From Fimbriimonadales bacterium (lineage in GTDB: Bacteria; Armatimonadota; Fimbriimonadia; Fimbriimonadales; ATM1): 14,120 bases of DNA. The DNA is taken from assembly GCA_041744215.1 (NCBI GenBank), contig JBGTLG010000003.1, positions 1 through 14,120 on the forward strand, given 5' to 3'. The position numbers and the translations under genes are program-made. Of the stretch, positions 1 to 14,120 are shown piece after piece. The stretch's first letter is position 1. Every line of letters begins with the position of its first letter. The notes beneath the pieces were generated by a model that saw only the letters and a list, made by a program, of their open reading frames with translations, did no database searches and was not told the DNA's origin.

Positions 1-1581
1 GCGCCCGCCGCCATCGCCGCTGTCTTGGCGCCCTCCTCGACGACGATCTCCGCGCTCGCGGTCGCGCTCACGGCCCCGGCCGCCGCTGCCCGTGCCTCCG
101 CCGCCACCTTCGTACCGGTTGAAGTCATCCCGCGAAGGACGCTCCTCGTAAGGGAGCAGGGCACGCATAGACAGAACCATCCTGCGCTCGTCGGGCCGCA
201 ATTCGATGACCTGGACTTCGACCTCGATGCCAGCCGTCACGACCTCGGAGGGCTTGTTGATTCTGCGGTGAGACATCTCACTGGCGGGGATGAATGCCTC
301 GGCACCCTCGTTCAGCTTCACAAACGCACCGCTCTGCACGACCCGCGAGATAGGCAGCGTTATCCGCTGTCCGATAGAGTAGTGCTCGCGGATTTCAGCC
401 CACGGATCTGGAAGCACTTGCCGGCGTCCGAGGCTGATTCGGCCTGAACTCGGATCGAGCCGCAGGACCATCACCCGGACTTCGTCGCCTTCTTTTAATA
501 CTTCTTTCGGGTGGTCCACGCGCGACCAAGCCATCTCGCTGATGTGCAAAAGCCCGTCTACACCGCCCAAGTCAACGAACGCGCCGTAATCGACGAGCCG
601 GCGAACCGTTCCTTCCAAGATCTCGCCCGGCTTCACCTTGTCGAAAAGCTCGCGCTTTTTGACTTCGCGGAGCTCCTCCTCGGCCAACCGATTCGACAGA
701 ACTACTTTCTTGCGCTCCTTGTCGATGTCAATGATCTTCAGTGGAATGGACTGACCTACATACTTGTCGAGGTTCCGGAGCTTGCCGGTACCAACGTGTG
801 AACCTGGAACGAATCCACGAACGCCGATATCGACCTCGAGGCCTCCCTTCACGCGACCAACCACAAATGCATGAATCGTCTTCTTCTCGTCGAACTCGTC
901 GACGAGCCTGTCCCACGCAGCCTGGAAGTCAGCACGCTTCTTGCTGACGATTGGATTGCCGTCGCGCGTGTCGGTCTGGATGACGACGACCTTGATCTTG
1001 TCGCCAACTTTGACCACGTCGGAAGCCTTCTCGATGTTCCCAACACCGAGTTCATCGAGCGGAATCTTCCCTTCTGACTTAGTTCCCAGATCTACAAAGG
1101 CACCTGTGTCATCAATGTGGATGACCGTCGCAGTCAGTGTCTCGCCTCGCCGTAGCGGCCGATACGCTTCGTCGTATTGCGTACCCGTCTCACCGCCCGC
1201 AAACGCCTCAACTGCGGCCTCGAATTCGTCAACATCGGAAACACGGCCCGATGGCTTCGGCCCAGAGGCCTCGGATGGTTTCGGCTCGGGCGGCGTAGGC
1301 GGCGCTGCGTCGCTGACCGCGCTCACCGGAATGGGAGGCGGTCTTTCCTCGGTTGCCGGAAGCGGTGGCGGTGTGATTGGCTGGGTAGGCGCATGCTCCG
1401 CCTCAGATTCTGTTTCTGAACGGGGCGTTTGCGGCTCCGGTTGATGGGTCGATCCCGCGCTTAGCGGGATGGAATCAGTCGCGGTGGCGGCCGCAGACGC
1501 CTCGGTCTCAGGCGAGGAGTCAGCTCCGCCGCCTAAGGCCTCGGGCTCGGTGCCCGAAGGCGTCAAATGCTCGTCACTCAT
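1..1581 (-). CDS. rpsA: 30S ribosomal protein S1 (3' end runs off the window): four S1 domains, long Pro/Glu/Ser/Thr-rich N-terminal extension, Arg/Asp/Gly-rich tail
   Basis: Manual translation of the minus strand from ATG at 1581 (upstream in-frame stop at 1591-1593) is open to base 1. It gives S1 motifs GAFVDLGTKSEGKIP, RVKGGLEVDIGVRGFVPGSHV, RLVDYGAFVDLGGVDGLLHISEMAWSRVDHP and SGAFVKLNEGAEAFIPASEMS. The + strand ORFs at 25, 511, 871 and 1177 are its antisense shadows. Confidence 0.95.
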   Translation of the reverse strand, partial: MSDEHLTPSGTEPEALGGGADSSPETEASAAATATDSIPLSAGSTHQPEPQTPRSETESEAEHAPTQPITPPPLPATEERPPPIPVSAVSDAAPPTPPEPKPSEASGPKPSGRVSDVDEFEAAVEAFAGGETGTQYDEAYRPLRRGETLTATVIHIDDTGAFVDLGTKSEGKIPLDELGVGNIEKASDVVKVGDKIKVVVIQTDTRDGNPIVSKKRADFQAAWDRLVDEFDEKKTIHAFVVGRVKGGLEVDIGVRGFVPGSHVGTGKLRNLDKYVGQSIPLKIIDIDKERKKVVLSNRLAEEELREVKKRELFDKVKPGEILEGTVRRLVDYGAFVDLGGVDGLLHISEMAWSRVDHPKEVLKEGDEVRVMVLRLDPSSGRISLGRRQVLPDPWAEIREHYSIGQRITLPISRVVQSGAFVKLNEGAEAFIPASEMSHRRINKPSEVVTAGIEVEVQVIELRPDERRMVLSMRALLPYEERPSRDDFNRYEGGGGGTGSGGRGRERDRERGDRRRGGRQDSGDGGGR

Positions 1582-1684
1582 GGTTGGGATTCACGCTCCA
1601 GATGGTAGTCCACGCGGCTCAGGCGTGACAGTTCTCCAAGTATTGCATACTCTCCCCCCTAAGGTCACCCCTTTTGTAACGAAC

Positions 1685-2953
1685 ATGGACATCCATAACT
1701 TCCTCGCAACGAAGCGAGAAGGGCGCACTCACTCACCAAAAGCGATATCCGAGTTTGTTCGCGCCATCACAGCCGACGAGGTCGAAGACTACCACGTGGC
1801 TGCTTGGCTGATGGCCGCATACATCAATGGTTTAGACGGCACGGAAACTTCTGCCTTGACGATCGCGATGGCAACGTCGGGCGAGACGCTGAAGTTTGAA
1901 AATGTCCCTCGGCCGATCATCGACAAGCACTCGACGGGTGGCGTCGGAGACACCACCACCTTTCTTCTGCTGCCACTGTTGGCGGCGTGCGGGATAACCG
2001 GTCTCAAGCTGTCCGGGCGAGGGTTAGGATTCACCGGCGGCACATTAGACAAACTGGCGTCGATTCCGGGGTTCCGAACAGATCTTTCGGGCGAGGAGAT
2101 TTCGCGGATCGCGAACGAGGTCGGCTGCGCGCTTGGCGGACAAACAGCGAACCTCGCGCCCGCTGACAAAAAACTCTATGCCCTCCGAGACGCCACCGAG
2201 ACAGTATCGAGTCTGCCATTGATTGCTGCCAGCGTAATGTCTAAAAAGCTCGCCGTCGAATCCGACGGCATTGTCCTCGACGTGAAGTGCGGAAGCGGAG
2301 CTTTCATGGAAACCAAGGAAGCTGCTCTCGCCCTCGCTACCCAACTGGTCGCGATCGGCGCGTCGGCAGGGCGCGAGACTCGTGCTCTCGTCACCGACAT
2401 GAGTCAACCGCTAAATCGGTATGTTGGAAATGCGCTCGAGATTCGCGGGGCGATCGAATCGCTCGATGGCGGATTGCAAGACCAACTGGGGCAGGTAGTG
2501 CTTCGACTGGCCGAAGAAATGGCCGACATCGCTGGCGTCTCCGTGAATTTTGCAGACGCAGTCTCTTCGGGTCGCGTTCATCACAAACTTCAAGAGTGGA
2601 TATCCGCGCAGGGTGGCGACCCGGGCGCACCTCTTCCGCGAGCACCAGTTGTCGAAACCGTCCTGAGCGATCGCGACGGATACATAGCCGCGATAGATTG
2701 CGCCAGCATCGGCAAGGCAGCGCGCGCTCTCGGTGCCGGGCGTGCTACGGTCGTCGACAAAATCGACCCTTCAGTCGGCATCGTCATGCAGGTTTCCATC
2801 GGAGACCCAGTGTCTGTCGGCGCGCCTCTCTACAATATCCACGCGAAGACGTCACACGACGCCACAAGCGCGCAAAACTCGTTGGCAAGCGCAATACAGT
2901 TTGCGCAGGATCCAGTCGAGCCCAAGCCGCTCATCCTCGCGACAATAAAATAG
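1685..2953 (+). CDS. pdp: Pyrimidine-nucleoside / thymidine phosphorylase (Pdp/DeoA family)
   Basis: Family motifs DKHSTGGVGD, KLSGRGLGFTGGTLDKL, PADKKLYALRD, SVMSKK and DVKCGSGAFM. Start moved to ATG 1685 (MDIHNFLATKREG) because the track start at 1469 overlaps rpsA. Confidence 0.93.
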   Translation: MDIHNFLATKREGRTHSPKAISEFVRAITADEVEDYHVAAWLMAAYINGLDGTETSALTIAMATSGETLKFENVPRPIIDKHSTGGVGDTTTFLLLPLLAACGITGLKLSGRGLGFTGGTLDKLASIPGFRTDLSGEEISRIANEVGCALGGQTANLAPADKKLYALRDATETVSSLPLIAASVMSKKLAVESDGIVLDVKCGSGAFMETKEAALALATQLVAIGASAGRETRALVTDMSQPLNRYVGNALEIRGAIESLDGGLQDQLGQVVLRLAEEMADIAGVSVNFADAVSSGRVHHKLQEWISAQGGDPGAPLPRAPVVETVLSDRDGYIAAIDCASIGKAARALGAGRATVVDKIDPSVGIVMQVSIGDPVSVGAPLYNIHAKTSHDATSAQNSLASAIQFAQDPVEPKPLILATIK

Positions 2954-2955
2954 AG

Positions 2956-4515
2956 CTACTCGCTTGCAGTCTTATCAAGCGAAAGCCAAATCCGCAGCGC
3001 CATCGCAATCGCGCCAACGAACGCTCCAAAGCCGACTGCCGTTTGCACCGCGTTGTTTACGATCAGCAGCGACCACGTCCGAACCTCAGCCGCGGTCGCG
3101 TCAAAGCGCGCTCCGGCGGACACCGCCGAATCCGAAATCAAACTGCCGATGAACTGCGCCGTTGGCACCTGAGTTAGTACCACGAGCGCAGCCATCGCTG
3201 TCAACACAGCGGCATCAAACGTTCGTATCCGAAAAGCGCGATACGCAGCAGAGACCAGATATGCAGCAAGCAGTCCAAACATCGTCGCGCCCAGAGGAAA
3301 CTGAATGTTCATAAACAGCAGTTCGTTCATGTCCTTCCAAAACGAACTCTCTCGATCGCTTCTGAAACCGATTTGCACCGTTATCATTGCGAACAGCGCG
3401 ACAAGCGTGACTCCCGAATAAAACCGATTCTCGCCGCCACGACCTATGCGCCTGCCATGCAAGACGAGCAGACTGATCAGCCCCAAACCGAAGCCGAATG
3501 TCATTACAGTCGGCACAAAGTCCGCAGCATTCCCCGCAAGTTCGTGGAAGAATGTTGAAGTCGCAGGAGACCCAAGAGCAGCAATCGATCCGTCGGCTTG
3601 GGATCCCGCGACCGGCCGAAGATCGTCGAGCGACGATCCCTCAAGCAATCCGATTCGCAAGCGAATGTCATCGCTCCCTGCGCCACCAACAAGAAGCAGC
3701 CGCAGAATTGCGCCGTCGCTGACGGCGCGAACATCCACCACTTCACTCGCAAACTGCAATTCAGGAAAAGCAAGCGCTTCCCTTTCCAATAACACTCCGC
3801 CTTCCACCTTTCCAGAAAACAATGTCGCGCCACCGCTCTCAGTTCTCGCCAAAACCAGCGCTCTGCCATCGGGCAGCGTCGCGAAGCTCATGATCGATTC
3901 CGGCTCGGGCAATCGCAAAAACACGCCCTGATCCGACCATGAAACAAGATCCAGGCTTGTCGCCGAATGCAAGACTTGACGCCCGCGCTCGGTCGCGGAA
4001 TACAGCATCGTAAAACCGCCGCCAGCATCAAACACCGTCATCCAATCAGGACCGTTTACCGACACCTGTTCAGGCGCGTCGAAAACCGCGTTCTGGCGCA
4101 CATCCCAATTCGTCCCGTCGATCGAATCCGCAACGCAAACTCGCCGTCGATCGTCGTTGCCGACGCCGATGAAAACCGCACGAAACCCGCCATCGAGAGC
4201 AAACACCGACGGCCGAAACTGTCCGTGATAATCGTGCCCCCGAAAGAACGACGAATCCAGCATCTTCCGTCGTACTCCAGTTGCATCGAGATCCATCTGC
4301 ACCAAGTACGTCCCGCGCGACTGCACTGAGAACGGCTTGCCCGCAGCTCGAACCGCACTCGTATAGTACAAGCGGTTCCCCACCAAGTCCGCGCCAAACG
4401 CGCCGTGTCGATCAATGCCTCCGCCAATCTCGCTCGGCAGAAAGAAAGCCAGCACCCAAATCGCGCCGAAGCCAAACGTGAATCCCCAGATCAGCGCGCG
4501 CCGAAATCGCTTCAA
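2956..4515 (-). CDS. Multi-pass membrane protein (conserved partner of DUF6754-like genes) with a large extracytoplasmic beta-propeller-like insert
   Basis: One N-terminal TM helix, then ~300 aa soluble region with blade-like repeats (RPSVFALDGGFRAVF...ADSIDGTNW; TVFDAGGGFTMLY...ATSLDLVSW), then several TM helices including ATMFGLLAAYLVSAAYRAFR. TTG start overlaps the upstream stop (TTGA, 4512-4515). Confidence 0.75.
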   Translation of the reverse strand: MKRFRRALIWGFTFGFGAIWVLAFFLPSEIGGGIDRHGAFGADLVGNRLYYTSAVRAAGKPFSVQSRGTYLVQMDLDATGVRRKMLDSSFFRGHDYHGQFRPSVFALDGGFRAVFIGVGNDDRRRVCVADSIDGTNWDVRQNAVFDAPEQVSVNGPDWMTVFDAGGGFTMLYSATERGRQVLHSATSLDLVSWSDQGVFLRLPEPESIMSFATLPDGRALVLARTESGGATLFSGKVEGGVLLEREALAFPELQFASEVVDVRAVSDGAILRLLLVGGAGSDDIRLRIGLLEGSSLDDLRPVAGSQADGSIAALGSPATSTFFHELAGNAADFVPTVMTFGFGLGLISLLVLHGRRIGRGGENRFYSGVTLVALFAMITVQIGFRSDRESSFWKDMNELLFMNIQFPLGATMFGLLAAYLVSAAYRAFRIRTFDAAVLTAMAALVVLTQVPTAQFIGSLISDSAVSAGARFDATAAEVRTWSLLIVNNAVQTAVGFGAFVGAIAMALRIWLSLDKTASE

Positions 4516-5282
4516 CGCCCAAGAATCCCCGTAACAGGATTAAGCGCTGACTGAGAAAAGACTGCAGCCAGAGAACCGCAGATTAACAGCGCCAAAATTA
4601 CCAGCTTCGCTACGTCTTGGCCAGCGACCGTACCGACTTGCACAGGATCGCGACTTAAGTAGGCGCTCGCAGCATACAGCTCTTCACCAATCAAAGTGTA
4701 ATCGCAAGCGCAGATGAAAAATGGAATCTGAAAGTAATCCGCAGTCGCAGCAATCTGAACGACGCCAAGACGCCGGCCATTCTCCGTAATCAACAGCGAT
4801 TCGAAACCGTAGCTCCCAAAGTAAAACGCGCTCGCGACGCCTTCACGACTCACCATCCCGATAGTTCCTGCTGCGTACGCGTTCTGATCCTCTGATAAGA
4901 ACCGCACCTCATTCGGATCGAACGCCTCTTCGCGATCAACTTCGCGAAATGCCTCGCGCAAGATGTCACCAGCTATCGAGACGACCGTCGCAATTCGCAG
5001 TGGCACCAGCACGCGAACGCCCATCTGAACGCACCGCTTGGCAACCCAAGAGAGCACCGCCAATCCCGCCAGAGTCTGCATATTGTCCAGTCCGCCCGAG
5101 CCCGGGCTAAACAAAACGGGCTTCCCCATCTCAGTCGCTCGACCTACGGCTTCCTCGATCGCGTCAACTCCGGCGATCCGCCGAATGAAATACTCTCGAC
5201 CCCGCCGCGCAGCCGCCATCCGATAAAGAATGGCCGCACACATGACCAGTGCGACGATCCGAATCGCCCAAGAGGGGTCCAT
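4512..5282 (-). CDS. DUF6754-like membrane protein
   Basis: Motifs IRRIAGVDAIEEAVGRATEMGKPV and ACDYTLIGEELYAASAYLSRDP recognised from memory of this family (no search run). N- and C-terminal TM helices. Confidence 0.75.
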   Translation of the reverse strand: MDPSWAIRIVALVMCAAILYRMAAARRGREYFIRRIAGVDAIEEAVGRATEMGKPVLFSPGSGGLDNMQTLAGLAVLSWVAKRCVQMGVRVLVPLRIATVVSIAGDILREAFREVDREEAFDPNEVRFLSEDQNAYAAGTIGMVSREGVASAFYFGSYGFESLLITENGRRLGVVQIAATADYFQIPFFICACDYTLIGEELYAASAYLSRDPVQVGTVAGQDVAKLVILALLICGSLAAVFSQSALNPVTGILGR

Positions 5283-5331
5283 GCCTGCCTGATTCGACGA
5301 TCAACAGCGTCGATCCTGCCAAACTTATCTC

Positions 5332-5643
5332 GTGCCGATCTACGAGTACCGTTGCGAGTCCTGCGGAAAAACCTTCGCAGCCCTAATCGGCATGACCGCT
5401 GAACCCGACGACGAGCGATGCCCCCATTGCAAATCGCGAAAAACCGCACGCCTCGTCTCCCGCCCAGCAAAATTCAGAACCGAAGACGACCGACTCGACG
5501 AACTCGCCGATAAACTTGACGGGATGCCAGAACCCAACTCGTATAAGCAAATGCGAGAAACAGTGCGCGAACTCGGCGGCGCGCTCGACGACAGCGCAGC
5601 CGACGAAATGGAAGAGATGTTCGAGATGGACGCGGAAGAATAG
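5332..5643 (+). CDS. FmdB-family zinc-ribbon protein
   Basis: MPIYEYRCESCG...CPHCKS...RLVS signature (CxxC-CxxC) with an acidic C-terminus. GTG start. Confidence 0.88.
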   Translation: MPIYEYRCESCGKTFAALIGMTAEPDDERCPHCKSRKTARLVSRPAKFRTEDDRLDELADKLDGMPEPNSYKQMRETVRELGGALDDSAADEMEEMFEMDAEE

Positions 5644-5677
5644 CAAGCCCTTGCCAGCCGTCACTCTCAAACAAGCA

Positions 5678-6370
5678 TCAGCGCATCTTCGATGCCATCT
5701 CGCTGATAGTAACAAACTTGTACCCCTGCGCGGTCAGCTCCTTATAGATTCGCTCCAAAGCGGCGACTGAATCAGGAACACCCGAATGCATCATGACAAT
5801 TCCCCCTGGCGTCGCTTTGTCGATAACCAACTTCGCTATCTTATCGGCCCCCGGGTTGAGATAATCCGCGGTATTGATCGTCCAAAGAACGCAAACGTAG
5901 TTGTGCTTTCTCGCGCGATCCAAAACCTCTGTGTTGTAGTTCCCGCCCGGTGGCCTCCAATAAACAACGCGCGCGCCGGTGATTGCCTGCATCTCCTTGT
6001 CCGCGTCGACAAGCTCTCGCTCAGCTTCGTCCAGCGAAATCTTCGTGAGATTCGGATGAGTGTAAGAGTGATTCGCTATCTCGTGACCGCTCTCCTGAAT
6101 CTCTTTCGCAAGTTCTGGAAATGCTTTCACCTGTTTGCCGACCAAAAAGAACGTCCCTTTGATTCCCAAACGATCGAGCTCTGCGACGAGCGGCTCCGTC
6201 GCGCCTGGCTTGGGCCCGTCATCAAACGTGAGCGCGATCTCTTTGTGTTCTGGCGATCCGGCCAACAACTTGCCGTTATCAAGCGCGGTCATCGCCTCCT
6301 GCTTCGTCGGCGGCTTTTCTCCGCACGCGCAAACGAACACGGCTAATACGATGGGAAACAGTCGAAACAT
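5678..6370 (-). CDS. Polysaccharide deacetylase (NodB/CE4 family), probable lipoprotein
   Basis: Motifs TFDDGP, NHSYTHP, RPPGG, DY and MMH. Signal peptide ends in lipobox-like VCAC. Confidence 0.92.
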   Translation of the reverse strand: MFRLFPIVLAVFVCACGEKPPTKQEAMTALDNGKLLAGSPEHKEIALTFDDGPKPGATEPLVAELDRLGIKGTFFLVGKQVKAFPELAKEIQESGHEIANHSYTHPNLTKISLDEAERELVDADKEMQAITGARVVYWRPPGGNYNTEVLDRARKHNYVCVLWTINTADYLNPGADKIAKLVIDKATPGGIVMMHSGVPDSVAALERIYKELTAQGYKFVTISEMASKMR

Positions 6371-6378
6371 CAGCGACG

Positions 6379-6384
6379 ATTATA
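6379..6384 (-). promoter_or_regulatory. Putative -10 box (TATAAT) for the deacetylase gene
   Basis: Consensus TATAAT on the minus strand, 8 nt upstream of ATG 6370. No Shine-Dalgarno and no recognisable -35. Confidence 0.4.
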
Positions 6385-6842
6385 TCCTGCACGAGATCAT
6401 CGATTCGCACCTCTCTCCCCACCCTCAAACCCGGCGAGCCGGAAAGCAGCTTCCGCTCCGCCACCGACAGCATAGAACTCCTCTCTCGCGCCCAAATGAG
6501 TTCTAGGAGAGAACGTGCTCACCTATTTCTCAAACCTGAATTGTCAAACCTGTTAAGTCTGCCAATCGAAAAGCGCGCAATCAAGCAGCTGCACGGAGTC
6601 CTACATCATGCACACCAATGCATCACTAAAAACAAAAGACGCAAGGTTTCATCCAAAAAGTCCACTGATCGACTGTCGGTAGAAACGTGGACATCGGATG
6701 GCGGACTTGTTAGAAGGCATCGCATTGCGCAAGAATTGATTCGTAACGAGTACGCACACTTGCTCGATGAACGCAATGAGCGCGAATGAGCAGTTGATGG
6801 GGCGTGCCTCGCCACGAAAACTGGCGACATCGGAGAAAACAA

Positions 6843-7166
6843 ATGTCATATTCAGAAGATCGAGCCGACTCGCGTTCAATGATGACAGTGCTGGTCGTCA
6901 TCTTAGTCATCGCGGTTGCAGCGGTCGCCATCTACTTCTTAGCGATTGCGCCCGGACAGCGGTCCACAGACACGGTCATCGTGACGCCAGCGGGTCCAGC
7001 CCCAGCCGGTGAGCCCGGACCTCCAGGAGCGCAAGGTGCTCCCGGAATGCCAGGATATCAGGGACCTCAAGGCAGCCCAGGTGCGCCAGGAGTGCCAGGT
7101 ACCACGCCGCCACCCACCAACACACCGCCTCCCAACAACACACCCCCCCCTGGTGGCGGAAACTAA
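6843..7166 (+). CDS. Small membrane-anchored collagen-like protein (107 aa)
   Basis: GGAG then ATG at 6843. TM helix VLVVILVIAVAAVAIYFLAIA, 11 Gly-X-Y triplets and a Pro/Thr/Asn tail. Confidence 0.8.
   Translation: MSYSEDRADSRSMMTVLVVILVIAVAAVAIYFLAIAPGQRSTDTVIVTPAGPAPAGEPGPPGAQGAPGMPGYQGPQGSPGAPGVPGTTPPPTNTPPPNNTPPPGGGN
7008..7106 (+). repeat. Collagen-like (Gly-X-Y)11 coding repeat
   Basis: GEP GPP GAQ GAP GMP GYQ GPQ GSP GAP GVP GTT. Confidence 0.85.
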
Positions 7167-7202: not shown

Positions 7203-7237
7203 AAGTGCCCATGAAACAGCTGATTTCATGGGCACTT
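7203..7237. terminator. Perfect 14-bp inverted repeat, probable (possibly bidirectional) intrinsic terminator
   Basis: AAGTGCCCATGAAA-cagctga-TTTCATGGGCACTT, between the convergent collagen-like and HAF-repeat genes. Only a short T run follows. Confidence 0.7.
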
Positions 7238-7614
7238 TATCGTGACTCCTTACAATATGCGTGGCCGCTGCATCCGCATATGTTGAGCCGCGCGGACAGG
7301 TTCTTATACTTTCACTGCTTGACGTGGATGGTGCATGCCCAGCCAGTCTTCATATCGCTATCCAACTCCATACTCCTCAATGTGAGACACCTCCAAGAAC
7401 TCCTTAGGACACATCATGAATTCCCGAACCGGTGGCTATTGTGGCTTCGAGATGCACATGAGCTTTACGGTTTGCTGATCAGAAGGTAGCAAGGTTGCCG
7501 AATACTAACCAAGTCACGCAGCGCATCGGCTAAGTGGTACATGCTGCATGCATCGATCAAACCCTGTGATACGGAGCAAAAGGCTACTGGCTTTAAGCAC
7601 GCCAAAACTGGCGA

Positions 7615-8775
7615 TCACAAGTTCTCATTCGGACGTGATGAGCGACCGCAGCTGTGGCGTCGAATACGCAAAAGCAGCAATCCACCGATCAGCGACACGA
7701 TAGCTGCAGGTTCGGACACGGTATCCAAGTGCCAAGCTTCGGACCTGCCTTGCGCATTAACTCCGTGGCCAACAATGAACCTGCCATCGGGCGATATTCC
7801 TGTTGCAAAAGTCAAGCGCCAACCCGCAGGAATGTACTGAGCGTAGAGCGTGTTTAAGTCCGCAATCCCAACTCCATCTCTCCAAAGCGCGGCGCGTACT
7901 CCAAGCGTCGGATCCAAAGCCGATCCGACTATCATCGCACCGTCAAGACTCACACCGTATGCAGACCCAGTAGCTCCCCCAAAAGTCCCCAGATCAACAA
8001 CATTCCCTGCAATCCACTTCGTTGGCCGTCTATTGCCCGACAGCGTTTCAGAATCGCCCACAGGCACTCTGCCATCGCCCGAAATCGCCAGAGCGCTATT
8101 GGAGCGGCCGCCCAAAGAGCCTAAGATCTCGATTTTGCCCTCTCGCCACCAAACTGCATGACGGGTCGAAGGGAAATCCGAATCTTCCGAAGAACCGACG
8201 ACAACAAGTCCATCGTGAGAGATTCCATTAGCAAATGTATCGCTCCCAGGAATCAACGACAGCGACGGAAGCAACTCGACTTGACCACTGCGCCAAACGA
8301 AGGCCCGGGTGGAACTATCAGGAGCAGTTGTCCACCCGACAAGGTTCGCCCCCTCGGGCGTCATTCCGAGAATGCCGCTATAAGCGTTTTCGAATACTTG
8401 AATCTCGACGAAAGTATCGTTTTCCCAACGAAACGCATACCGCTCGTAATGAGAATTCGGACCGACCATCGCGCCCGCAATAACCGAGCCGTCACTGGAC
8501 GTGGCTGCACCAGACCCCTGCACGTAACCAGGCGTCGCCATCGGGATGAGCTGACCGTCAACCCACCGAATCGCAATGACAGAGGAAGTGTGGAAATCCC
8601 CCCCTGCGCCCACGGCAACTCTCCCATCCCAGGAAACGGCGTATGCACGAGTGGCGTGCTGCATTGGAGAAAGCAGCCCAAGTGGAGTGAATATCTGACT
8701 GAACGCAGTCCCGCAACAAAACAGGGCGACCGCAATAGCTACAATAACTCGGTGCCAAGCGACCTCAAGAATCAA
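7615..8775 (-). CDS. Secreted HAF-repeat (beta-propeller) protein with PEP-CTERM-type sorting signal
   Basis: Repeated A-x-[AG]-[IV]-S-x-DG-x2-[IV]-VG...A-x2-W units. Signal peptide ends AFS-Q. C-terminus VSEP-AAIVSLIGGLLLL-RIRR. Start taken as TTG 8775 (GGAGG 9 nt upstream); the track uses TTG 8820. Confidence 0.88.
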   Translation of the reverse strand: MILEVAWHRVIVAIAVALFCCGTAFSQIFTPLGLLSPMQHATRAYAVSWDGRVAVGAGGDFHTSSVIAIRWVDGQLIPMATPGYVQGSGAATSSDGSVIAGAMVGPNSHYERYAFRWENDTFVEIQVFENAYSGILGMTPEGANLVGWTTAPDSSTRAFVWRSGQVELLPSLSLIPGSDTFANGISHDGLVVVGSSEDSDFPSTRHAVWWREGKIEILGSLGGRSNSALAISGDGRVPVGDSETLSGNRRPTKWIAGNVVDLGTFGGATGSAYGVSLDGAMIVGSALDPTLGVRAALWRDGVGIADLNTLYAQYIPAGWRLTFATGISPDGRFIVGHGVNAQGRSEAWHLDTVSEPAAIVSLIGGLLLLRIRRHSCGRSSRPNENL

Positions 8776-8887
8776 CTTTCGCAACCTCCGGCACTTGCGG
8801 ACGTCCGCTTCCCTGCCCAAACTTTCATGTTCGAGCGCATATCAGAGAGCATACCCGTGGTGAGCGCCCCACTCCGTCGAGCAAACA

Positions 8888-9059
8888 GCGGGCGGGTGCC
8901 ATGGGCATGGTCGAAATGCCAGGTAAATTCAGAAGTCCGATGTTCGGAAGTAGCGTCCAGAAGATTGTTGCGAGACCGCCGGTCTCAGCCGCGGCAGGGA
9001 TGAATCCTCATCGTGCCGAATGGTGGGGTTTGAATGACAACGAATTCACCCACGCCCGC
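8888..9059. repeat. Junction element A (imperfect inverted-repeat-bounded)
   Basis: Left arm GCGGGCGGGTG (8888-8898). Right arm CACCCACGCCCGC (9047-9059), whose reverse complement is the left arm plus 2 extra nt. Confidence 0.55.
8899..9053 (+). repeat. ~155-bp direct repeat, copy 1 (copy 2 at 10528-10683)
   Basis: 8912-9053 and 10542-10683 differ at only two positions (8945/10575 and 8949/10579). Confidence 0.95.
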
Positions 9060-9128
9060 CGTCGCCCATAGGCAAGACATGCAGCGATTCATAAAAGAGC
9101 TTCTCGAATCTGCGACGGAGCAGAGATC

Positions 9129-9851
9129 TTGAGCAGGGATTGGCAAACCCACGTCGTGTTTTCAGTGGATATCAGCGAGAGCCTGTTGATCCGTTTGTGG
9201 GGCGGAGCGTTGCGGGAGGCTGGTGCATTAGATCCGTCGGAGCCCATACTTCCGCTCCGTGATGAGGAAGTTCATTGGGCGAGGTGCATAGCAACGATGG
9301 GAAGAGCTCGGCTATACGACTTGGCTCGAGCCCTCGGCGCACAACGCGGCTTCGAAGTACGACAGTTGATTACTCCTCCTCTGTTGTATCGAGTTTACGA
9401 ATACTGTTTTTGGAAGGCGGAAGAGTGGATTGAAGATGTCATCGGTGATGTTCGCCATGAGAAGTCCGAGAGCGGTGAACTGACCCTGATCTACCCGACG
9501 CTAGACCACTGGATGAATCTGTCATGGCTATGTTGCTATTCTCCTTTTGATTTTGAGCTCCACTTCTTTGGCGATCAAGGTCGATTCATGTCATGGACGG
9601 GTATCGGTGACGACAACTGCAATTTGCAGATTGAACTCTACGGCGCCGACGCAAACCCTCATGATGCGCTCAGTCATTGGGCGGGGAAAACTGGAATCAA
9701 TTTGTACCGGCTCGATGTTTCTGAGGACTATAAGCTGAAGCCTTGGGACATTACGACCGATTCGCCACACGCAGGCTTATCCCCAGTCGTGGGAACAGGT
9801 GGCGATCAGGTCAATCATTGGCCAGCGGATGGACGGAATGACCAGTCATAA
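9129..9851 (+). CDS. Hypothetical soluble protein, acidic and Trp-rich (candidate orphan immunity protein)
   Basis: 240-codon ORF with GGAG 8 nt before the TTG start. No family recognised. Confidence 0.65.
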   Translation: MSRDWQTHVVFSVDISESLLIRLWGGALREAGALDPSEPILPLRDEEVHWARCIATMGRARLYDLARALGAQRGFEVRQLITPPLLYRVYEYCFWKAEEWIEDVIGDVRHEKSESGELTLIYPTLDHWMNLSWLCCYSPFDFELHFFGDQGRFMSWTGIGDDNCNLQIELYGADANPHDALSHWAGKTGINLYRLDVSEDYKLKPWDITTDSPHAGLSPVVGTGGDQVNHWPADGRNDQS

Positions 9852-9999
9852 GAAACAAGATAGAAAGAAGATGACAGTGGGACCAAATCTGTATGCCACG
9901 GCTGATGGGCGGTTTGCAGAGTTCTCGTTCGCCACACTAACCATTGAGCTCTCCCCAGCTTTCACAACACCCGTGAATCGTCAATCCGTCCACGCCCGC
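9825..9999. repeat. Junction element B
   Basis: Left GCGGATGGACGGAATGAC (9825-9842) versus reverse complement of 9980-9999, GCGGG[CG]TGGACGGATTGAC. Confidence 0.7.
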
Positions 10000-10022
10000 G
10001 AAGCACTACGGAGTGTCTGATT

Positions 10023-10454
10023 TTGTTTTCTTCGGTTGGTAACATCCTAATCTCGGTCGCATTTGCCACCTTCGTCGGAGCCTGTGCAGGAGTCCTCTGC
10101 CACATGTTGACTCGATCTCGGTGGCGTCGGCTACACCGTAACCGTGGCATCTCGAACCAAACAGAGTTACTGCTATTAGAATGGAGACAGGTAGCAGTAT
10201 CATACGACATTCCGTTCGCCTTGGTTTTTTTGTTTGTTGGCAGAAGTGTTTTCGTGGCCGGGGTAGTTTTTGGAACGTGCATAGCGATACGGGCTCTGTT
10301 TGTGTTGATGGACATCAGGGCAATAAAGCACGGAGAAACAATTGCCCTTCCAAGCCTCATCTTGTTGTTTGCGAGGGAGGCTGTCAGGGTGGTAAGCGTA
10401 TTCATAATTGCGACGGGCCTCTACATTGCTGCGGGTGGCCGACCTGAAGTATGA
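10023..10454 (+). CDS. Hypothetical membrane protein (~4 TM)
   Basis: Hydrophobic helices. GGAG at 10010-10013 before the TTG start. Confidence 0.65.
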   Translation: MFSSVGNILISVAFATFVGACAGVLCHMLTRSRWRRLHRNRGISNQTELLLLEWRQVAVSYDIPFALVFLFVGRSVFVAGVVFGTCIAIRALFVLMDIRAIKHGETIALPSLILLFAREAVRVVSVFIIATGLYIAAGGRPEV

Positions 10455-10721
10455 CGGACGGGTGGCAGGCGTAGCTACTGAAAAGGAGCGGGCTGAATGA
10501 GAGTGGTCATTCGAGCAAAGCTGAGTACCATGGGCGATGGGCGAAATGCCAGGTAAATTCAGAAGTCCGATGTTTGGAGGTAGCGTCCAGAAGATTGTTG
10601 CGAGACCGCCGGTCTCAGCCGCGGCAGGGATGAATCCTCATCGTGCCGAATGGTGGGGTTTGAATGACAACGAATTCACCCACCGCGTCCACAACCGTCA
10701 CCTCAACCCGACCAGGCCCGC
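10431..10721. repeat. Junction element C (contains copy 2 of the 155-bp repeat)
   Basis: Left GCGGGTGGCCGACCTGAAGT (10431-10450) versus reverse complement of 10700-10721, GCGGG[CC]TGGTCGGGTTGAGGT. Confidence 0.6.
10528..10683 (+). repeat. ~155-bp direct repeat, copy 2
   Basis: Near-identical to 8899-9053. Confidence 0.95.
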
Positions 10722-10740
10722 CGCTTAAACTCGATGAGTA

Positions 10741-11079
10741 ATGATGATGAGCGAACTATCTAGTAACAGCGTGCTATCTATAGTGTTGATCGCTGTCGGG
10801 CTATCTTCGGCTGCGATCAGTGTGTACCCGTGGCACAATGGTATGCGTCCGGTGTTTTTTGCGGGCCTCGGGATGGTCGCGTTCGGAGCGTCGGAGTTTT
10901 GTGAACAGTTCCTGTCTCCAGCCTCAGGGTTAGTGGCGTTGTTCATCGGTGTCTATCTGATCGGAATTGCGTCCGCATTAGTGATAGCTGAAAGATCTCC
11001 AGTTAATCGTCGTGGAAAAGCGGCGAGCGCAGATCACTCGACACCGCCTGCGGTCGATAAAAACCAAACCAGTGAATGA
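10741..11079 (+). CDS. Hypothetical 3-TM membrane protein
   Basis: Three hydrophobic helices and a polar tail. Shares a residue pattern with 11274-11579. Confidence 0.7.
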   Translation: MMMSELSSNSVLSIVLIAVGLSSAAISVYPWHNGMRPVFFAGLGMVAFGASEFCEQFLSPASGLVALFIGVYLIGIASALVIAERSPVNRRGKAASADHSTPPAVDKNQTSE

Positions 11080-11162
11080 AATATTTGTGAAGTCCACATC
11101 CTGTCGCGCAGACTTCGAAGCTATGGGTGGCGAGCAGCGATGCCTGGAACGTGAATGGGCAA

Positions 11163-11235
11163 GGCGGGGCGGCGAAAGAGAGCTAAGCAAGAATCCGGAT
11201 AAGATACTGATGGGCTATCTTCGCCTGGCACCCTC
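11163..11235. repeat. Junction element H (short, degenerate)
   Basis: GGCGGG-GC-GGCGAAAGAGAGC (11163-11183) pairs with GCTATCTTCGCC-TGGCA-CCCTC (11214-11235). Confidence 0.4.
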
Positions 11236-11273
11236 AGACTCATCAGTTCACGCTCTAATGGAGGAATTGTAAG

Positions 11274-11579
11274 ATGGGCGGTTCAACTATCCTACTTAGT
11301 GGGTTATTGATGGCGTCGCTCGGACTTGCAATGGTCGCCGTGTCGATTTTTTGGAAGAGCCCCTATCGATTGCAGCTGCTCGTCCTTGGATTGGGAGGCC
11401 TGCTGTTCGGCTTAGGCAAAACTATTGCAGCTTTCGGCATAACTGAGCTCGGCTGGTACACTCTACTTGCGGGTTTTGGGCTCTGCGTGATATCGGTTCT
11501 GTGGGGGCTGCTGGACGTGTTCCTCCGACGCAAACGACTGGTGACCAGCGCAAACGATGATGGAAGTGAAGAAGTGTGA
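11274..11579 (+). CDS. Hypothetical 3-TM membrane protein
   Basis: GGAGG at 11260-11264. Three Leu/Gly-rich helices followed by RRKR. Confidence 0.8.
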   Translation: MGGSTILLSGLLMASLGLAMVAVSIFWKSPYRLQLLVLGLGGLLFGLGKTIAAFGITELGWYTLLAGFGLCVISVLWGLLDVFLRRKRLVTSANDDGSEEV

Positions 11580-11604
11580 CACCGGCCGCTATGGAGAATG
11601 AGGG

Positions 11605-12132
11605 ATGTTTTTCGGCATTATCGTATTGTTGTTCGCTGCATACGCAGTATGGATTCTTCGGCCATGCCTACAGAGCGGCGGAACTAGGCGATGTCACTGG
11701 GCGTTCACCACGCTGGTGCTCATAGCTGGGTTTTCGCCCATGGCCCTGCTCCTGAGTTCCGAAGCGCACCAGATCATCGCCTTGGGAGCGCTTACAGCTA
11801 GCTTCTTTTTCTTGCCGCTGATCCTGTGGCTGCTAAAGCCTCCGCTACCGAATCATGTCAGGGCGAAGTGCGGTAGAACGAACATTGCAATAGGCGGATC
11901 AATTGGACTGCTAACGTTTATCGGTTTCGCCGCTTACGCAGTCATAAATCACCATACGGTTCCCGAACCAGTAAGGGTGGGTTTGGCGGCTAGTTTGACC
12001 ATGTCCTTCATCGGTTACGTTCTGCTTTGCTTGTACCTCTTGCATGCCGGAAGCTCGATCCACTCGACAAACTACCGGAGCACATTTGAAAGAGGAAAGT
12101 GTCGTGACCCCAGTGATAACTCAAATGAATGA
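11605..12132 (+). CDS. Hypothetical membrane protein (~5 TM)
   Basis: GGAG/GAGG upstream of the ATG. Five hydrophobic segments. Confidence 0.75.
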   Translation: MFFGIIVLLFAAYAVWILRPCLQSGGTRRCHWAFTTLVLIAGFSPMALLLSSEAHQIIALGALTASFFFLPLILWLLKPPLPNHVRAKCGRTNIAIGGSIGLLTFIGFAAYAVINHHTVPEPVRVGLAASLTMSFIGYVLLCLYLLHAGSSIHSTNYRSTFERGKCRDPSDNSNE

Positions 12133-12139
12133 ATCGGCC

Positions 12140-12240
12140 GATGGGTGCCCAGAGTGTAAGATGACGAGAACTGATATGCGTGAGATAGGTTGGCGCAGTC
12201 AGATGCGTCGGATAGATGTGATTCGGCGTGATCTTCGTGC
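12140..12240 (+). repeat. Junction element D: diverged, right-truncated tandem copy of element E
   Basis: Aligns without gaps to 12241-12341 (offset 101 nt; MTRTDMREIGWRSQMRRIDVIRR vs MTRMRMREIGWHDQMRRTDLIRR). Lacks the CATCTGCCCGTCAAC end. Confidence 0.85.
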
Positions 12241-12357
12241 GGCGGGTGGGCGGAGTGAAGGATGACGAGAATGAGAATGCGTGAAATCGGGTGGCACGAC
12301 CAGATGCGTCGAACTGATTTGATTCGGCGTAGCCCCCGCGCGCATCTGCCCGTCAAC
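12241..12357 (+). repeat. Junction element E (supplies SD and ATG of the Rhs ORF)
   Basis: Left GGCGGGTGGG pairs with right TCTGCCCGTC (10 bp including G-T pairs), followed by AAC. Homologous to elements D and F. Confidence 0.75.
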
Positions 12358-13137
12358 GGCGTTGCGCGTACGCAGTACGGATTAGGCGCAAGAGGAATCG
12401 ATTGGATTCGCAACAAGGTTGGCAGCGACCCAGAGACGATCGTGTTCCCGATCTACGATGGGCGTGGGAACATGATCTACACGCTAACGCGCGAGGCCAA
12501 CGACGGCCACGATCTCGGCAACAAACGCATCTACGGCGCATGGGGAGACCTAAGACACGACAGCAATCCCGGCGACGGACCCAACACGCAGTACGTCGGA
12601 AATCTCGGACACAAGAAAGACAACGAATCCGGGCTCACCTACATGCGCGCGCGCTACTACGAGCCGTGGACGGGGCGATTCATCAGCGAGGACCCGGCAG
12701 GTGATGGATGGAATTGGTTTACATATTGCGGAAATGATCCCATCAATAAAATGGACGACTCGGGCAAGAAAGCCAGTCCAATCGGCGCGACTTGGGGATT
12801 TGCGATTGCCGCGTTCTTCATGTTCTACTTCAGTTGGGATCACGAAGGGTCTACTTTCTTACATGCAGTGAAGTTCGTTGAGGCGATTGTGGCTGGCGGG
12901 GCGGCATATCACATTAATCATCCAAAGACATATGCTTGGGTCCGTAGCGCTGCCAACTCGTTCCTCAAGGCGATCGGCATGGCCGCTGGCGCTGGAGACA
13001 TCAACAGATCCATGGGGCCCAAAACTCGCAATATGCTAACGGGCGGACTCATCATTTCTTTTTACATCGGGTACTCGATGTCTCTGTGGTATCTGATGCA
13101 CGAACTTGACGCTTGGGTGGAGGGGCACATCCGATGA
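12262..13137 (+). CDS. Orphan Rhs module: Rhs-associated core end plus hydrophobic C-terminal toxin domain
   Basis: YDGRGN, YGAWG, ESGLTYMRARYYEPWTGRFISEDP and YCGNDPINKMDDSG (PxxxxDPxG-like boundary), followed by a 123-aa variable C-terminus from 12766. Confidence 0.9.
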   Translation: MTRMRMREIGWHDQMRRTDLIRRSPRAHLPVNGVARTQYGLGARGIDWIRNKVGSDPETIVFPIYDGRGNMIYTLTREANDGHDLGNKRIYGAWGDLRHDSNPGDGPNTQYVGNLGHKKDNESGLTYMRARYYEPWTGRFISEDPAGDGWNWFTYCGNDPINKMDDSGKKASPIGATWGFAIAAFFMFYFSWDHEGSTFLHAVKFVEAIVAGGAAYHINHPKTYAWVRSAANSFLKAIGMAAGAGDINRSMGPKTRNMLTGGLIISFYIGYSMSLWYLMHELDAWVEGHIR

Positions 13138-13415
13138 AGATTAGAAGTCTAGATCTCCGCGGGGTCATGATGTGCTTGGCCACCGCCTGCGTGGGAGTAC
13201 TGTCTGGCCTCTTATGCCTCCAGTTGGGCTTGCGAGGGGTCTGGTTGGCCGTCCCAGTTCCGATGGTGATCGTCCCGGTGATCGGACGCATTATCTATCG
13301 CGGCGGGTGGGCAAGAGAGCACGATGCCTTTTACATCATCGTGGGCGTGGCGTGGCTGGTCGCTCTCGTCTTGGTAAACATCGGTCCCAACATCGTTGCG
13401 GGCTTCGGGTGGTAA
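13134..13415 (+). CDS. Putative cognate immunity protein (3 TM, 93 aa)
   Basis: ATGA overlap with the Rhs stop and GGAGG at 13119-13123. Small hydrophobic protein immediately downstream of the Rhs CT. Confidence 0.75.
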   Translation: MKIRSLDLRGVMMCLATACVGVLSGLLCLQLGLRGVWLAVPVPMVIVPVIGRIIYRGGWAREHDAFYIIVGVAWLVALVLVNIGPNIVAGFGW

Positions 13416-13431
13416 AGGCCGTCTACTGGCG

Positions 13432-13548
13432 GACGGGTGGCCGGAGTGAAAAATGACGATAATGAAAATGCGTGAAACCGGGTGGCACGACCAGATGCGT
13501 CGATGTGAGTTGATTCGGCGTAGCCCCCGGGCGCATCTGCCCGTCAAC
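13432..13548 (+). repeat. Junction element F (paralogue of E)
   Basis: GACGGGTGGCCGGAGTGA ... CATCTGCCCGTCAAC. Offset 1191 nt from element E. Confidence 0.8.
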
Positions 13549-13716
13549 GTCGTTGCGCACACGAAGTACGGCTTGGACGCGAGAGGAATCGACTGGATTC
13601 GCGACAAAGTCGGAAGCGATCCCGAGACGATCGTGTTCCCGACTTATGACGGGCATGGGAACATGGTGTATACGCTCAAACGCGACGGCACCGACGATTA
13701 TCTGCGCGGCAACTAG
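13453..13716 (+). pseudogene. Truncated second Rhs core fragment
   Basis: Colinear with the first 87 aa of 12262-13137 (YGLDARGIDWIRDKVGSDPETIVFPTYDGHGN). Stops at TAG and homology ends there. Confidence 0.85.
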
Positions 13717-13717
13717 C

Positions 13718-13863
13718 GGCGGGCGGGCGGTGCGATAGATAAGAGAGAACAGGATCAAAAGATGACAAAAGGAAGAACGCTAGATGATATGAATCGCGGG
13801 CGATTTGCAAGCTGCTTGTTACCCAAAAAGGCGCGGAGCTTTGTATCGATCTCCCCCGTCAAC
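13718..13863. repeat. Junction element G
   Basis: Left GGCGGGCGGGCGGTGCGATA and right TATCGATCTCCCCCGTCAAC. Interior resembles element B. Confidence 0.6.
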
Positions 13864-13992
13864 TGCGAAGCCGAAACGCGAGCCTGGTAACTGAAATGAC
13901 TTTGAGAGTGCATCGCAATGAATGCAGATTTGCTCCAAAAGCAGAAATGCGAACCGAATGAATCACGACACAACAGACAAATGAGGAAACGG

Positions 13993-14120
13993 ATGAAACA
14001 ACTGACACTTGCAATCGCAGCCTTCGCGCTGACTTGCGCCGCAACGGCGCAGGGCTTTTTCACCATAGAGATTCCAACCGACGCCACAAACGGCATCAAC
14101 GAACGCAAAGCGGCCCCAAC
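13993..14120 (+). CDS. Secreted protein, N-terminus only (runs off the window)
   Basis: GAGGA then ATG. MKQLTLAIAAFALTCAATAQGFFTIEIPTDATNGINERKAAP has a Sec signal peptide ending ATA-Q. Confidence 0.7.
   Translation, partial: MKQLTLAIAAFALTCAATAQGFFTIEIPTDATNGINERKAAP

Follow-up and report, generated by a model that had tools for sequence, protein, structure and literature searches.

A lineage-restricted family of non-coding repeats at the gene junctions of an orphan Rhs array: candidate rearrangement junctions in a Fimbriimonadales genome

How are arrays of orphan Rhs modules and small membrane-protein genes put together, and does the DNA between the genes take part? We studied this question in a stretch of a Fimbriimonadales bacterium (Armatimonadota), in which a sequence-only reading had described a toxin/immunity gene array at positions 8888 to 13863, punctuated by eight junction elements (A to H), and had proposed these as recombination sites of a cassette-capture system whose recombinase is encoded elsewhere. 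The stretch, referred to here as the window, is an entire 14,120-bp contig (C3) of a fragmented metagenome-assembled genome (2.68 Mb, 42 contigs, 56% GC), and it is present in three DNA runs of one hot-spring metagenome study and in no listed RNA run. G000 denotes the genome of the window, G001 a congener, and C followed by a number a contig. Our analyses showed that elements A to G belong to one non-coding repeat family that is also present elsewhere in the genome, and because of this the spacers look mobile or recombination-prone rather than integron-type. We consider the chances about even that the family is a lineage-restricted element, resembling miniature inverted-repeat transposable elements (MITEs) and bacterial interspersed mosaic elements (BIMEs), that serves as rearrangement junctions in an orphan Rhs/immunity island.

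Family members were detected with three nhmmer profiles, and merging of the hits gave 31 elements on 16 contigs of G000. The family comprises full, internally deleted and truncated copies of approximately 145–345 nt. In the fullest copies (about 280–345 nt; C27:20262-20607 and window 10455-10732) the order is a T1 module, a head, a two-stem hairpin of about 95 nt and a tail ending GGCCACGCCCGCCG. The T1 module, which is common to B, C and G, is built from the left arm, an ATG-bearing purine-rich stretch and a CCAYGG..GATGGGCG motif. The modules (T1, head-1, head-2, hairpin and tail) combine variously among copies; B, G and C33:3082-3294 are internal deletions that retain both ends, and D, E and F have a distinct head and a right end reading ...CTGCCCGTCAAC. 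The description of conserved ends and variable interiors in the sequence-only reading was borne out.

Within the window, the gene order and plus-strand orientation of the array genes were as originally described, as were the seven left arms (at 9825, 10431, 10458, 12141, 12242, 13433 and 13719) and the right ends (...CCCGCCG or CCCGCG for A, B and C; ...CCCGTCAAC for E, F and G). The eight junctions, all on the plus strand, fall within 5 kb and the copies form direct repeats every 0.6–1.2 kb. Element A (8888..9072) is a truncated copy with a weak left part, head-1, a hairpin remnant whose 3' stem arm is deleted, and a right terminus of ...CACGCCCGCCG; it was identified by nhmmer (E 5e-45) and by R1, a covariance model of the tail (E 3e-12). 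Element A is 96.9% identical to C across 159 nt with unrelated flanks, and a unitig matching A was present at double depth in X1, the likely source run. Element B (9822..10000) consists of a T1 module, with the CCAyGG..GATGGGCG motif, left arm and purine-rich stretch, and a right terminus, with an internal deletion. Its T1 profile match (E 3.8e-27) is that of a sequence used to build the profile, as B, C and G were its seeds. Element C (10431..10732) has an extra left arm (10431-10447) followed by the near full-length copy at 10455-10732, which is made up of T1 (10455-10589), head-1, a hairpin with a decayed outer stem, and the tail. It was matched by nhmmer (E 2.4e-56) and by the two models for which it was a seed (T1 E 1.3e-20; R1 E 1.2e-24).

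Element D (12129..12241; nhmmer E 1.1e-27) is an E-type head only, 74% identical to E, and is cut off by E. Element E (12235..12369; E 5.8e-38) has a left arm, GGAG plus ATG, a 108-nt head and a right end of ...CTGCCCGTCAAC that meets the Rhs core at the position of residue 1187 in the full-length paralogue, with Rhs homology starting from 12361-12370. Element F (13422..13560; E 3.4e-39) is a second E-type copy, with a head that is 91% identical to that of E next to core sequence that is 77% identical. Together D, E and F are 72–91% identical to one another, with nhmmer E-values of 1e-27 to 3e-39. Element G (13717..13863) is a T1 module with a right end of ...CCCCGTCAAC (T1 E 1.7e-26, as a seed), and elements of this type precede a repeated secreted-protein gene elsewhere in the genome (C36:90492, C8:11612, C4:111299 and C7:16960). 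Based on the nhmmer and T1 profile matches, the proposal of a single element family held for A to G but not for spacer H (11080..11273), which was matched by none of the three profiles and whose fold was unremarkable (z -0.65).

The left and right arms had been considered complementary, each to its own partner. In a duplex test with 500 shuffles this was upheld for B, which has a specific 19-nt inverted repeat (9830-9848/9974-9992; 84% complementary) and was beaten by no shuffle (z -4.3). Element A was marginal (beaten by 43 shuffles), and C, E, F and G were no better than the shuffles. The mean pairing energy of cognate arms (-13.5 kcal/mol) and of non-cognate arms (-13.55 kcal/mol) was equal, and we therefore interpret the arms as one shared, imperfect terminal inverted repeat of 14–17 nt, with ...GACGGGTGGCCGGAGTG at the left and GGCCACGCCCGCCG or ...CTGCCCGTCAAC at the right. 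Folding of the whole elements A to H, as the minimum free energy with DNA parameters, showed no excess over dinucleotide shuffles (z -1.8 to +1.8), so that none of the eight folded better than shuffled DNA. A search for integron attC sites, made with a regular expression for box pairs 40–130 nt apart on both strands of 8800–14120, found no pairs against a shuffle mean of 0.85, which agrees with the reported absence of attC boxes.

The E-type heads carry features that could be taken for a translated leader. All six have GGAG plus ATG and at least 34 open codons, and in all three Rhs-linked copies the ATG and the Rhs piece share one reading frame. The synonymous/non-synonymous changes in these heads were 1/7, 1/18 and 1/18, compared with 9/1 to 14/8 in the adjoining Rhs core (13/15 for the E–F pair), which has the usual third-position bias. 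In the tail and head-1 part of the A and C type, the start codon and reading frame were unconserved across copies. Because the substitution pattern lacks codon constraint and the frames are not conserved, we conclude that the elements are non-coding, and on the same evidence a leader peptide was ruled out. Searches of the window and six related loci against Rfam had no match at gathering or permissive thresholds. A scan for promoters and terminators found nothing within the elements, none of which contains a sigma-70-like promoter, and the region as a whole has one such site against 3.9 expected.

The distribution of the family is narrow. The R1 tail model found members in two of 20 genomes of the family, with 12 hits in G000 and three in G001; 10 of these 15 hits are its own seeds. 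A 31-nt exact pattern was found only in G001 among 185,579 species genomes scanned, and had no match in a metagenome contig collection; an earlier 23-nt pattern had no match in the species-genome collection, and the plasmid and phage collections had no match to the family. Tail copies are 84–91% identical between G000 and G001, compared with approximately 75% for housekeeping DNA. Genome G001 has a like mix of an Rhs orphan, a membrane ORF (open reading frame), a tail, an E-like head and a RAYT-like gene (RAYT, REP-associated tyrosine transposase; REP, repetitive extragenic palindromic sequence).

Within G000 the elements are enriched in arrays; besides the one in the window, an array of small membrane ORFs is found at C33:118.5-121.3 kb. 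Solitary copies adjoin unrelated genes, including a TTHB210-like gene, a DUF2254 gene and an SBBP/sulfatase-modifying neighbourhood, and in G001 an ankyrin-repeat gene. The start of 17 of the 31 elements is within 40 nt of the stop of a co-oriented ORF, compared with 15% of random placements (n = 3000), and a co-oriented ORF follows 24 of 31 elements, compared with 47% at random. Genome-wide scatter irrespective of gene boundaries had been named as an observation that would point to an ordinary dispersed repeat, and the family is dispersed on 16 contigs with a bias to gene boundaries. The placement of left arms within 25 nt of an upstream plus-strand stop codon applies to B, to both arms of C, and to D, F and G, but not to A, which comes after the start of a divergent HAF-repeat gene, nor to E, which comes after D.

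The positions at which the elements begin and end coincide with breaks in homology. Comparisons of paralogous loci showed that homology begins at the left arms (12239 for E and its C4 counterpart, 13429 for F and E, and 13717 for G and its C36 counterpart), and one contig of run X1 diverges at 12238. Contigs from the sequencing runs also contained two joints, which we treated as paralogue mappings because one had a side of only 23 nt and the other matched a paralogue. The excised circles envisaged in the sequence-only reading were not seen, with no excision or circle junction in the assembled contigs of the runs.

At the other side, the right end is fused to a 5'-truncated gene in at least seven copies. 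The fusion partner is Rhs-1 from residue 1187 in E, F and the C4 copy, a 31-nt Rhs-1 remnant (z 10.8) in the C5 copy, approximately the last 105 codons of Rhs-2, a second Rhs family, at C27:20607, the 3' part of a RAYT gene in the C26 copy and, in the C41 copy, the final 55 codons of a gene that G001 has intact. In no case was the missing 5' half found across the element, so these fusions are not simple insertions. Of all the findings, the joining of right ends to truncated genes gives, in our opinion, the best reason for studying these elements further. In the window, true Rhs core runs from 12370 and from 13561 onward, with 83–87% identity to the full-length paralogue. Similarity to the core sequence that lies upstream of the junction was not significant (z -0.1 to 2.3) for the heads of D, E, F and the C4 and C33 copies, or for elements A, B, G and H. 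This rejects a pure core-remnant origin; an Rhs-core origin of the heads was rejected for all copies except that of C5. One further Rhs joint has no element: at C36:88246-89685 an Rhs-1 fragment from residue 997 directly adjoins tsaE, and the joint reads ...GACCACCCGGG, resembling the core of the element ends.

Linkage of the elements to a tyrosine recombinase gene had been put forward as a check. The genome has three tyrosine recombinases (PF00589), none of them on the window contig, and the best score for an integron integrase (TIGR02249) was 21.5 bits, at C27, against a cut-off of 265. The 8.9 kb that precede the array contain no recombinase, and the contig ends on its downstream side. Genome-wide, no single recombinase consistently adjoins the elements.

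Other mobile DNA does abut such ends. An IS110-family pseudogene, a DDE insertion sequence (IS) and, at a T1 fragment, a tyrosine-recombinase island were all found in this position. The IS110-family element (C25:25166-26283, minus strand), whose transposase gene has two in-frame stops and is the only IS110 gene of the genome, is inserted precisely at a ...GT|GCCACCCG end, with the end of a second repeat, the L-module, on one side and the CCACCCG core of that repeat on the other. The DDE IS is at the same kind of junction. IS110-group elements carry a guide RNA in non-coding DNA upstream of the gene, and approximately 150 nt of non-coding DNA lies upstream of the gene at C25. The L-module is a repeat of about 315 nt with approximately 30 nhmmer hits, all outside the window (C25:26284-26601, C2:31134-31448, C14:28634-28943 and about 25 further places). 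It has two TTGTTAACG boxes and, at its end, a hairpin with an 11-bp stem followed by GTGCCACCCGG and often by a 55-nt hairpin and GGCCACCCGTC. In G001 (seven places) and in a further genome, G017 (two places), it is conserved over its last 90 nt alone, and it has no Rfam match. The end that comes after the L-module, read as its reverse complement, also fits the left-arm pattern of the window elements.

The genome also encodes two RAYTs (NF047646), RAYT-1 (108.8 bits) and RAYT-2 (95.1 bits). RAYT-1 (212 aa; C18:949-1617 and C4:107962-108633) is located between inverted copies of a CCCTCCAC...GTGGAGGG hairpin, and on C4 it is 1.3 kb upstream of an Rhs orphan. A degenerate RAYT-1 3' end with a REP remnant is present at 7304-7376 of the window, with remnants at 7310-7363, 1.5 kb upstream of the array, and another RAYT-1 remnant lies beside the full-length Rhs locus (C8:11563-11613). 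RAYT-2 (C15:3-509) is bracketed by a GTCTCAAC...GTTGAGAC hairpin and has many near-identical, assembly-breaking copies at no fewer than 11 contig ends (C7, C10, C18, C20, C21, C26, C28, C29, C32, C33 and C34 have copies at their ends), including those of several small Rhs-bearing contigs.

Taken together, we propose that the family behaves as a mobile or recombinogenic element that is not autonomous, of the MITE or REP/BIME kind, and that it has spread into the spacers of an island of orphan Rhs tips and small membrane proteins. Its copies lie directly behind the stop of one gene and before the next gene, co-oriented with both. Gene conversion could then keep the direct-repeat copies alike, as A and C (97% identical) and the heads of E and F (91% identical, versus 77% for the core) may be, and the copies would provide breakpoints for the duplication, deletion and stacking of modules. 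The right end would be a preferred joint for 5'-truncated gene pieces, Rhs tips included. The spread and recombination of the copies, and any enzyme acting on them, are the conjectural parts of this proposal.

Several observations weigh against a MITE- or BIME-like element of this kind. No IS end was matched, the ends of the IS110-family element and the DDE IS differ from those of the family, and no autonomous element has the same ends. Neither RAYT hairpin occurs in elements A to G. As originally noted, no target-site duplication is visible in the flanks, which are nevertheless compatible with one of 2–3 nt. A MITE that inserts at random would not be expected to show strict co-orientation and a location at stop codons, features that suit a cis-acting RNA role or directional recombination just as well. 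The placement statistics were obtained with mechanically called ORFs and related copies, so the binomial p-values overstate support and are indicative only. The canonical tail hairpin shows little covariation (term +1.21; five pairs with one compensatory case each), a comparison without power as its 10 sequences come from two species and are too alike. No presence/absence polymorphism with clean element boundaries was obtained from the comparison with G001, the one close relative on which the interspecies comparison is based, in which the C41 and C6 loci are rearranged and one comparison is partial. Synteny with G001 stops after a polysaccharide deacetylase gene, at window position 6370, such that the break is upstream of the array. 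Finally, the repeats of this fragmented genome break its assembly.

An alternative, which we regard as unlikely, is a cis-acting leader: the elements would form the 5' untranslated or leader part of whichever gene comes next and provide it with a ribosome-binding site and start codon (GGAG, then ATG), with a short ORF upstream of it, or with an RNA structure. They would serve Rhs orphans as translation-start adaptors and spread together with their genes by duplication. The paralogue homology of the E-type and G-type copies runs from the left arm into the downstream gene, most elements (24 of 31) are followed by a co-oriented ORF, the E-type heads keep their start signals, open codons and Rhs frame, and tail copies are about 90% identical between species, compared with approximately 75% for housekeeping DNA. 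Such a role is difficult to reconcile with A and C, which are 97% identical yet precede unrelated ORFs, and with some copies after which another repeat module comes instead of a gene (C7 of G001), and there is no sigma-70-like promoter, Rfam match or peptide constraint in the elements. We consider it very improbable that the junctions are an ordinary product of orphan-Rhs history, that is, decayed core pieces left after homologous displacement. Orphan modules are generally explained by homologous recombination within the core (PMC3150448), and both the true core from 12370 and 13561 and the core remnant at C5 speak for it. However, the heads of D, E, F and the C4 and C33 copies, and A, B, G and H, are unlike core, and the same elements lie beside non-Rhs genes, so this explanation is contradicted for the elements themselves.

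The original proposal of site-specific cassettes, in which an enzyme whose gene lies elsewhere, be it a tyrosine recombinase, an HUH enzyme of the RAYT type or one of the IS110 type, recombines the arms and captures, excises and reorders units of an element plus its gene or genes, as is thought for integrons or rAID arrays, seems to us distinctly doubtful. The modular locus, the boundaries at left arms (in three paralogue comparisons and one metagenome contig), the co-orientation, and the conserved ends with variable interiors are all consistent with cassettes, as are right ends that meet gene fragments at varied positions, as in secondary-site recombination, and similar arrays in G001 (Rhs orphans, membrane ORFs, elements and a RAYT-like gene). 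The multi-copy RAYT at the ends of at least 11 contigs, small Rhs contigs among them, RAYT-1 at 1.3 kb from the C4 orphan, and the IS110-family element exactly at a ...GT|GCCACCCG end also point in this direction. However, the window has no recombinase and none is consistently beside the elements, which are dispersed and also occur singly beside unrelated genes; they have no attC boxes and no stable hairpin, with folding energies at the level of shuffles; the RAYT genes have different flanking hairpins; the sole IS110 gene is a pseudogene with two stops; and the assembled contigs contain no excision product. A cassette system of a new kind, with an enzyme acting in trans (the multi-copy HUH-type RAYT, a tyrosine recombinase or an IS110-type enzyme) and a right end that is joined to internal positions of donor genes and so captures 3' gene pieces, we hold to be slightly less probable still. 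In such a system, captured Rhs tips and immunity genes would gain a ribosome-binding site and an in-frame start, and stack serially.

Comparison with known systems placed the MITE- and BIME-like reading in context. The family resembles MITEs in its terminal inverted repeats, size (0.15–0.35 kb), end-keeping internal deletions, dispersal and near-identical copies in unrelated flanks, and differs from them in having no target-site duplication, no parent IS and a strong strand and position bias relative to genes. REPs in enterobacteria and pseudomonads lie near stop codons between co-oriented genes and attract IS elements, and REP/BIME units are palindromes of 20–40 nt. The elements here share with REPs and BIMEs a lineage-specific, non-coding, extragenic and dispersed character, a modular mosaic structure, a position near stop codons between co-oriented genes and insertions of IS elements at their ends, in a genome with two RAYTs, but at 145–345 nt with terminal inverted repeats they are unlike palindromes of 20–40 nt. 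They differ from REP/REPIN-RAYT systems in that the RAYT genes are flanked by other hairpins and the window copies fold like shuffles. As with integron attC sites, the elements lie between co-oriented units and have imperfectly complementary ends and variable interiors; the differences are that RYYYAAC/GTTRRRY boxes, an IntI and a folded-strand signal are all missing here, and that unit homology starts 5' of the gene, not 3'.

The suggestion that such a system would be undescribed holds only in part, as repeat-punctuated arrays of orphan immunity genes with a tyrosine recombinase (rAID-1) have been published (10.1101/471110). The rAID-1 array of Bacteroidales consists of co-oriented short genes, including orphan immunity genes, with repetitive intergenic sequences, and rAIDs are defined by an adjacent XerD-family tyrosine recombinase and skewed GC (10.1101/471110, PMC12247911). 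On that basis rAID-1 is the nearest described array type. Co-oriented short genes with conserved intergenic motifs between them are found here also, but there is no XerD-family recombinase upstream, the repeats also occur outside arrays, and the phylum is Armatimonadota. The GC content of the array is 54%, compared with 57% for the remainder of the window and 52–58% for the contigs. According to PMC3150448, published orphan modules are mostly without translation start signals and are bounded by core homology. The locus here shares with the orphan rhs-CT/rhsI and cdiA-CT/cdiI modules described there a 5'-truncated core, a variable tip, a stacked immunity gene and a full-length paralogue elsewhere (C8), and differs in that a non-core repeat with an in-frame GGAG plus ATG precedes each orphan.

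These comparisons indicate why the locus merits attention. In the usual view, orphan toxin tips and immunity genes accumulate only by homologous recombination in the toxin core; here, in a hot-spring member of a little-studied phylum, a dispersed non-core repeat bounds each module. The repeat ends fall at the borders of modules, at the points where several unrelated genes are truncated and at the sites where other mobile elements have inserted. Should the repeats be no more than portable homology, this would be a further instance of a variable island shaped by repeats. If an enzyme does act on them, the island would be a second, independent case, after the rAIDs of Bacteroidales, of integron-like collecting of interbacterial weapons and defences, and the elements would offer a defined pair of DNA ends for testing.

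The designation of the locus as a toxin/immunity array was supported only for the Rhs tip. This 291-aa ORF (12262..13137, plus strand) has a core end and a hydrophobic C-terminal toxin domain. It was matched by TIGR03696 (71.6 bits at residues 91-168; cut-off 32.5) and is 80% identical to residues 1188-1341 of the 1445-aa full-length paralogue on C8. With the end of the Rhs_assc_core, a variable tip, a small downstream gene and no N-terminal part, it has the make-up of an orphan Rhs module, and a search for relatives of the tip found two distant Rhs proteins from other phyla. The next gene (13134..13415, plus strand) overlaps the stop codon of the toxin gene (ATGA) and encodes a 93-aa membrane protein with no family match, which is presumed to be the cognate immunity protein based on position and overlap. 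The partner is thus assigned by position alone, and the remaining ORFs have no family match. The C-terminal tips of both the orphan (12741-13137) and the full-length Rhs protein (C8:10900-11265) are rich in hydrophobic helices, and the ORFs next to both are small polytopic membrane proteins with no family match, which suggests from sequence features that these may be membrane-acting toxins. The second Rhs family (C27:14159-19089, and C42) is split into two ORFs, a shell ORF ending ...WDGDEYLGEVQ and a separate MALSKRY... ORF with the core end and tip, and a WD40-repeat ORF comes after the latter.

All other array genes are also on the plus strand. Orf9129 (9129..9851; 240 aa), the 3' end of which overlaps the left arm of B, had no Pfam or NCBIfam match and found only itself among 5.8 billion clustered proteins; it may be a lineage-specific gene or no gene at all. 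Orf10023 (10023..10454; 143 aa) is hydrophobic, with no family match and no paralogue among the array ORFs, and is a possible immunity protein by context only. The products of orf10741 (10741..11079; 112 aa), and of orf11274 (101 aa) and orf11605 (175 aa), which together span 11274..12132, are likewise hydrophobic, with no family match and no assigned function. The small array ORFs showed no paralogy to each other or to known immunity genes, and the immunity roles of these four ORFs are inferred from hydrophobicity and position. Downstream of the 93-aa protein gene there is a truncated Rhs fragment of 87 codons (13453..13716), with a stop that precedes the core end, and then the start of a four-copy gene for a signal-peptide protein (13974..14120), within which the contig ends. 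Copies of this gene (MKQLTLAIAAF...) follow Rhs-1-type loci in the window (13974-14120) and at C8:11800-12259, C36:90750-91187 and C4:111490-111636; the four are 93–96% identical and each is preceded by a G-type element.

Upstream of the array, positions 1-6400 of the window contain housekeeping genes that are syntenic with G001 at approximately 75% identity; for one housekeeping protein, the nearest named relatives come from Fimbriimonadia/Fimbriimonadales MAGs. The genes before the array encode S1, thymidine phosphorylase, a DUF6754 protein, polysaccharide deacetylase and a HAF-repeat protein; the last of these (7615-8820, minus strand) is divergent from element A and is not a recombinase. 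A small ORF at 6843-7166 encodes a membrane anchor with a collagen-like Gly-Pro-rich and Pro/Thr/Asn-rich tail, and it is followed by a hairpin with a perfect 13-bp stem (7203-7237).

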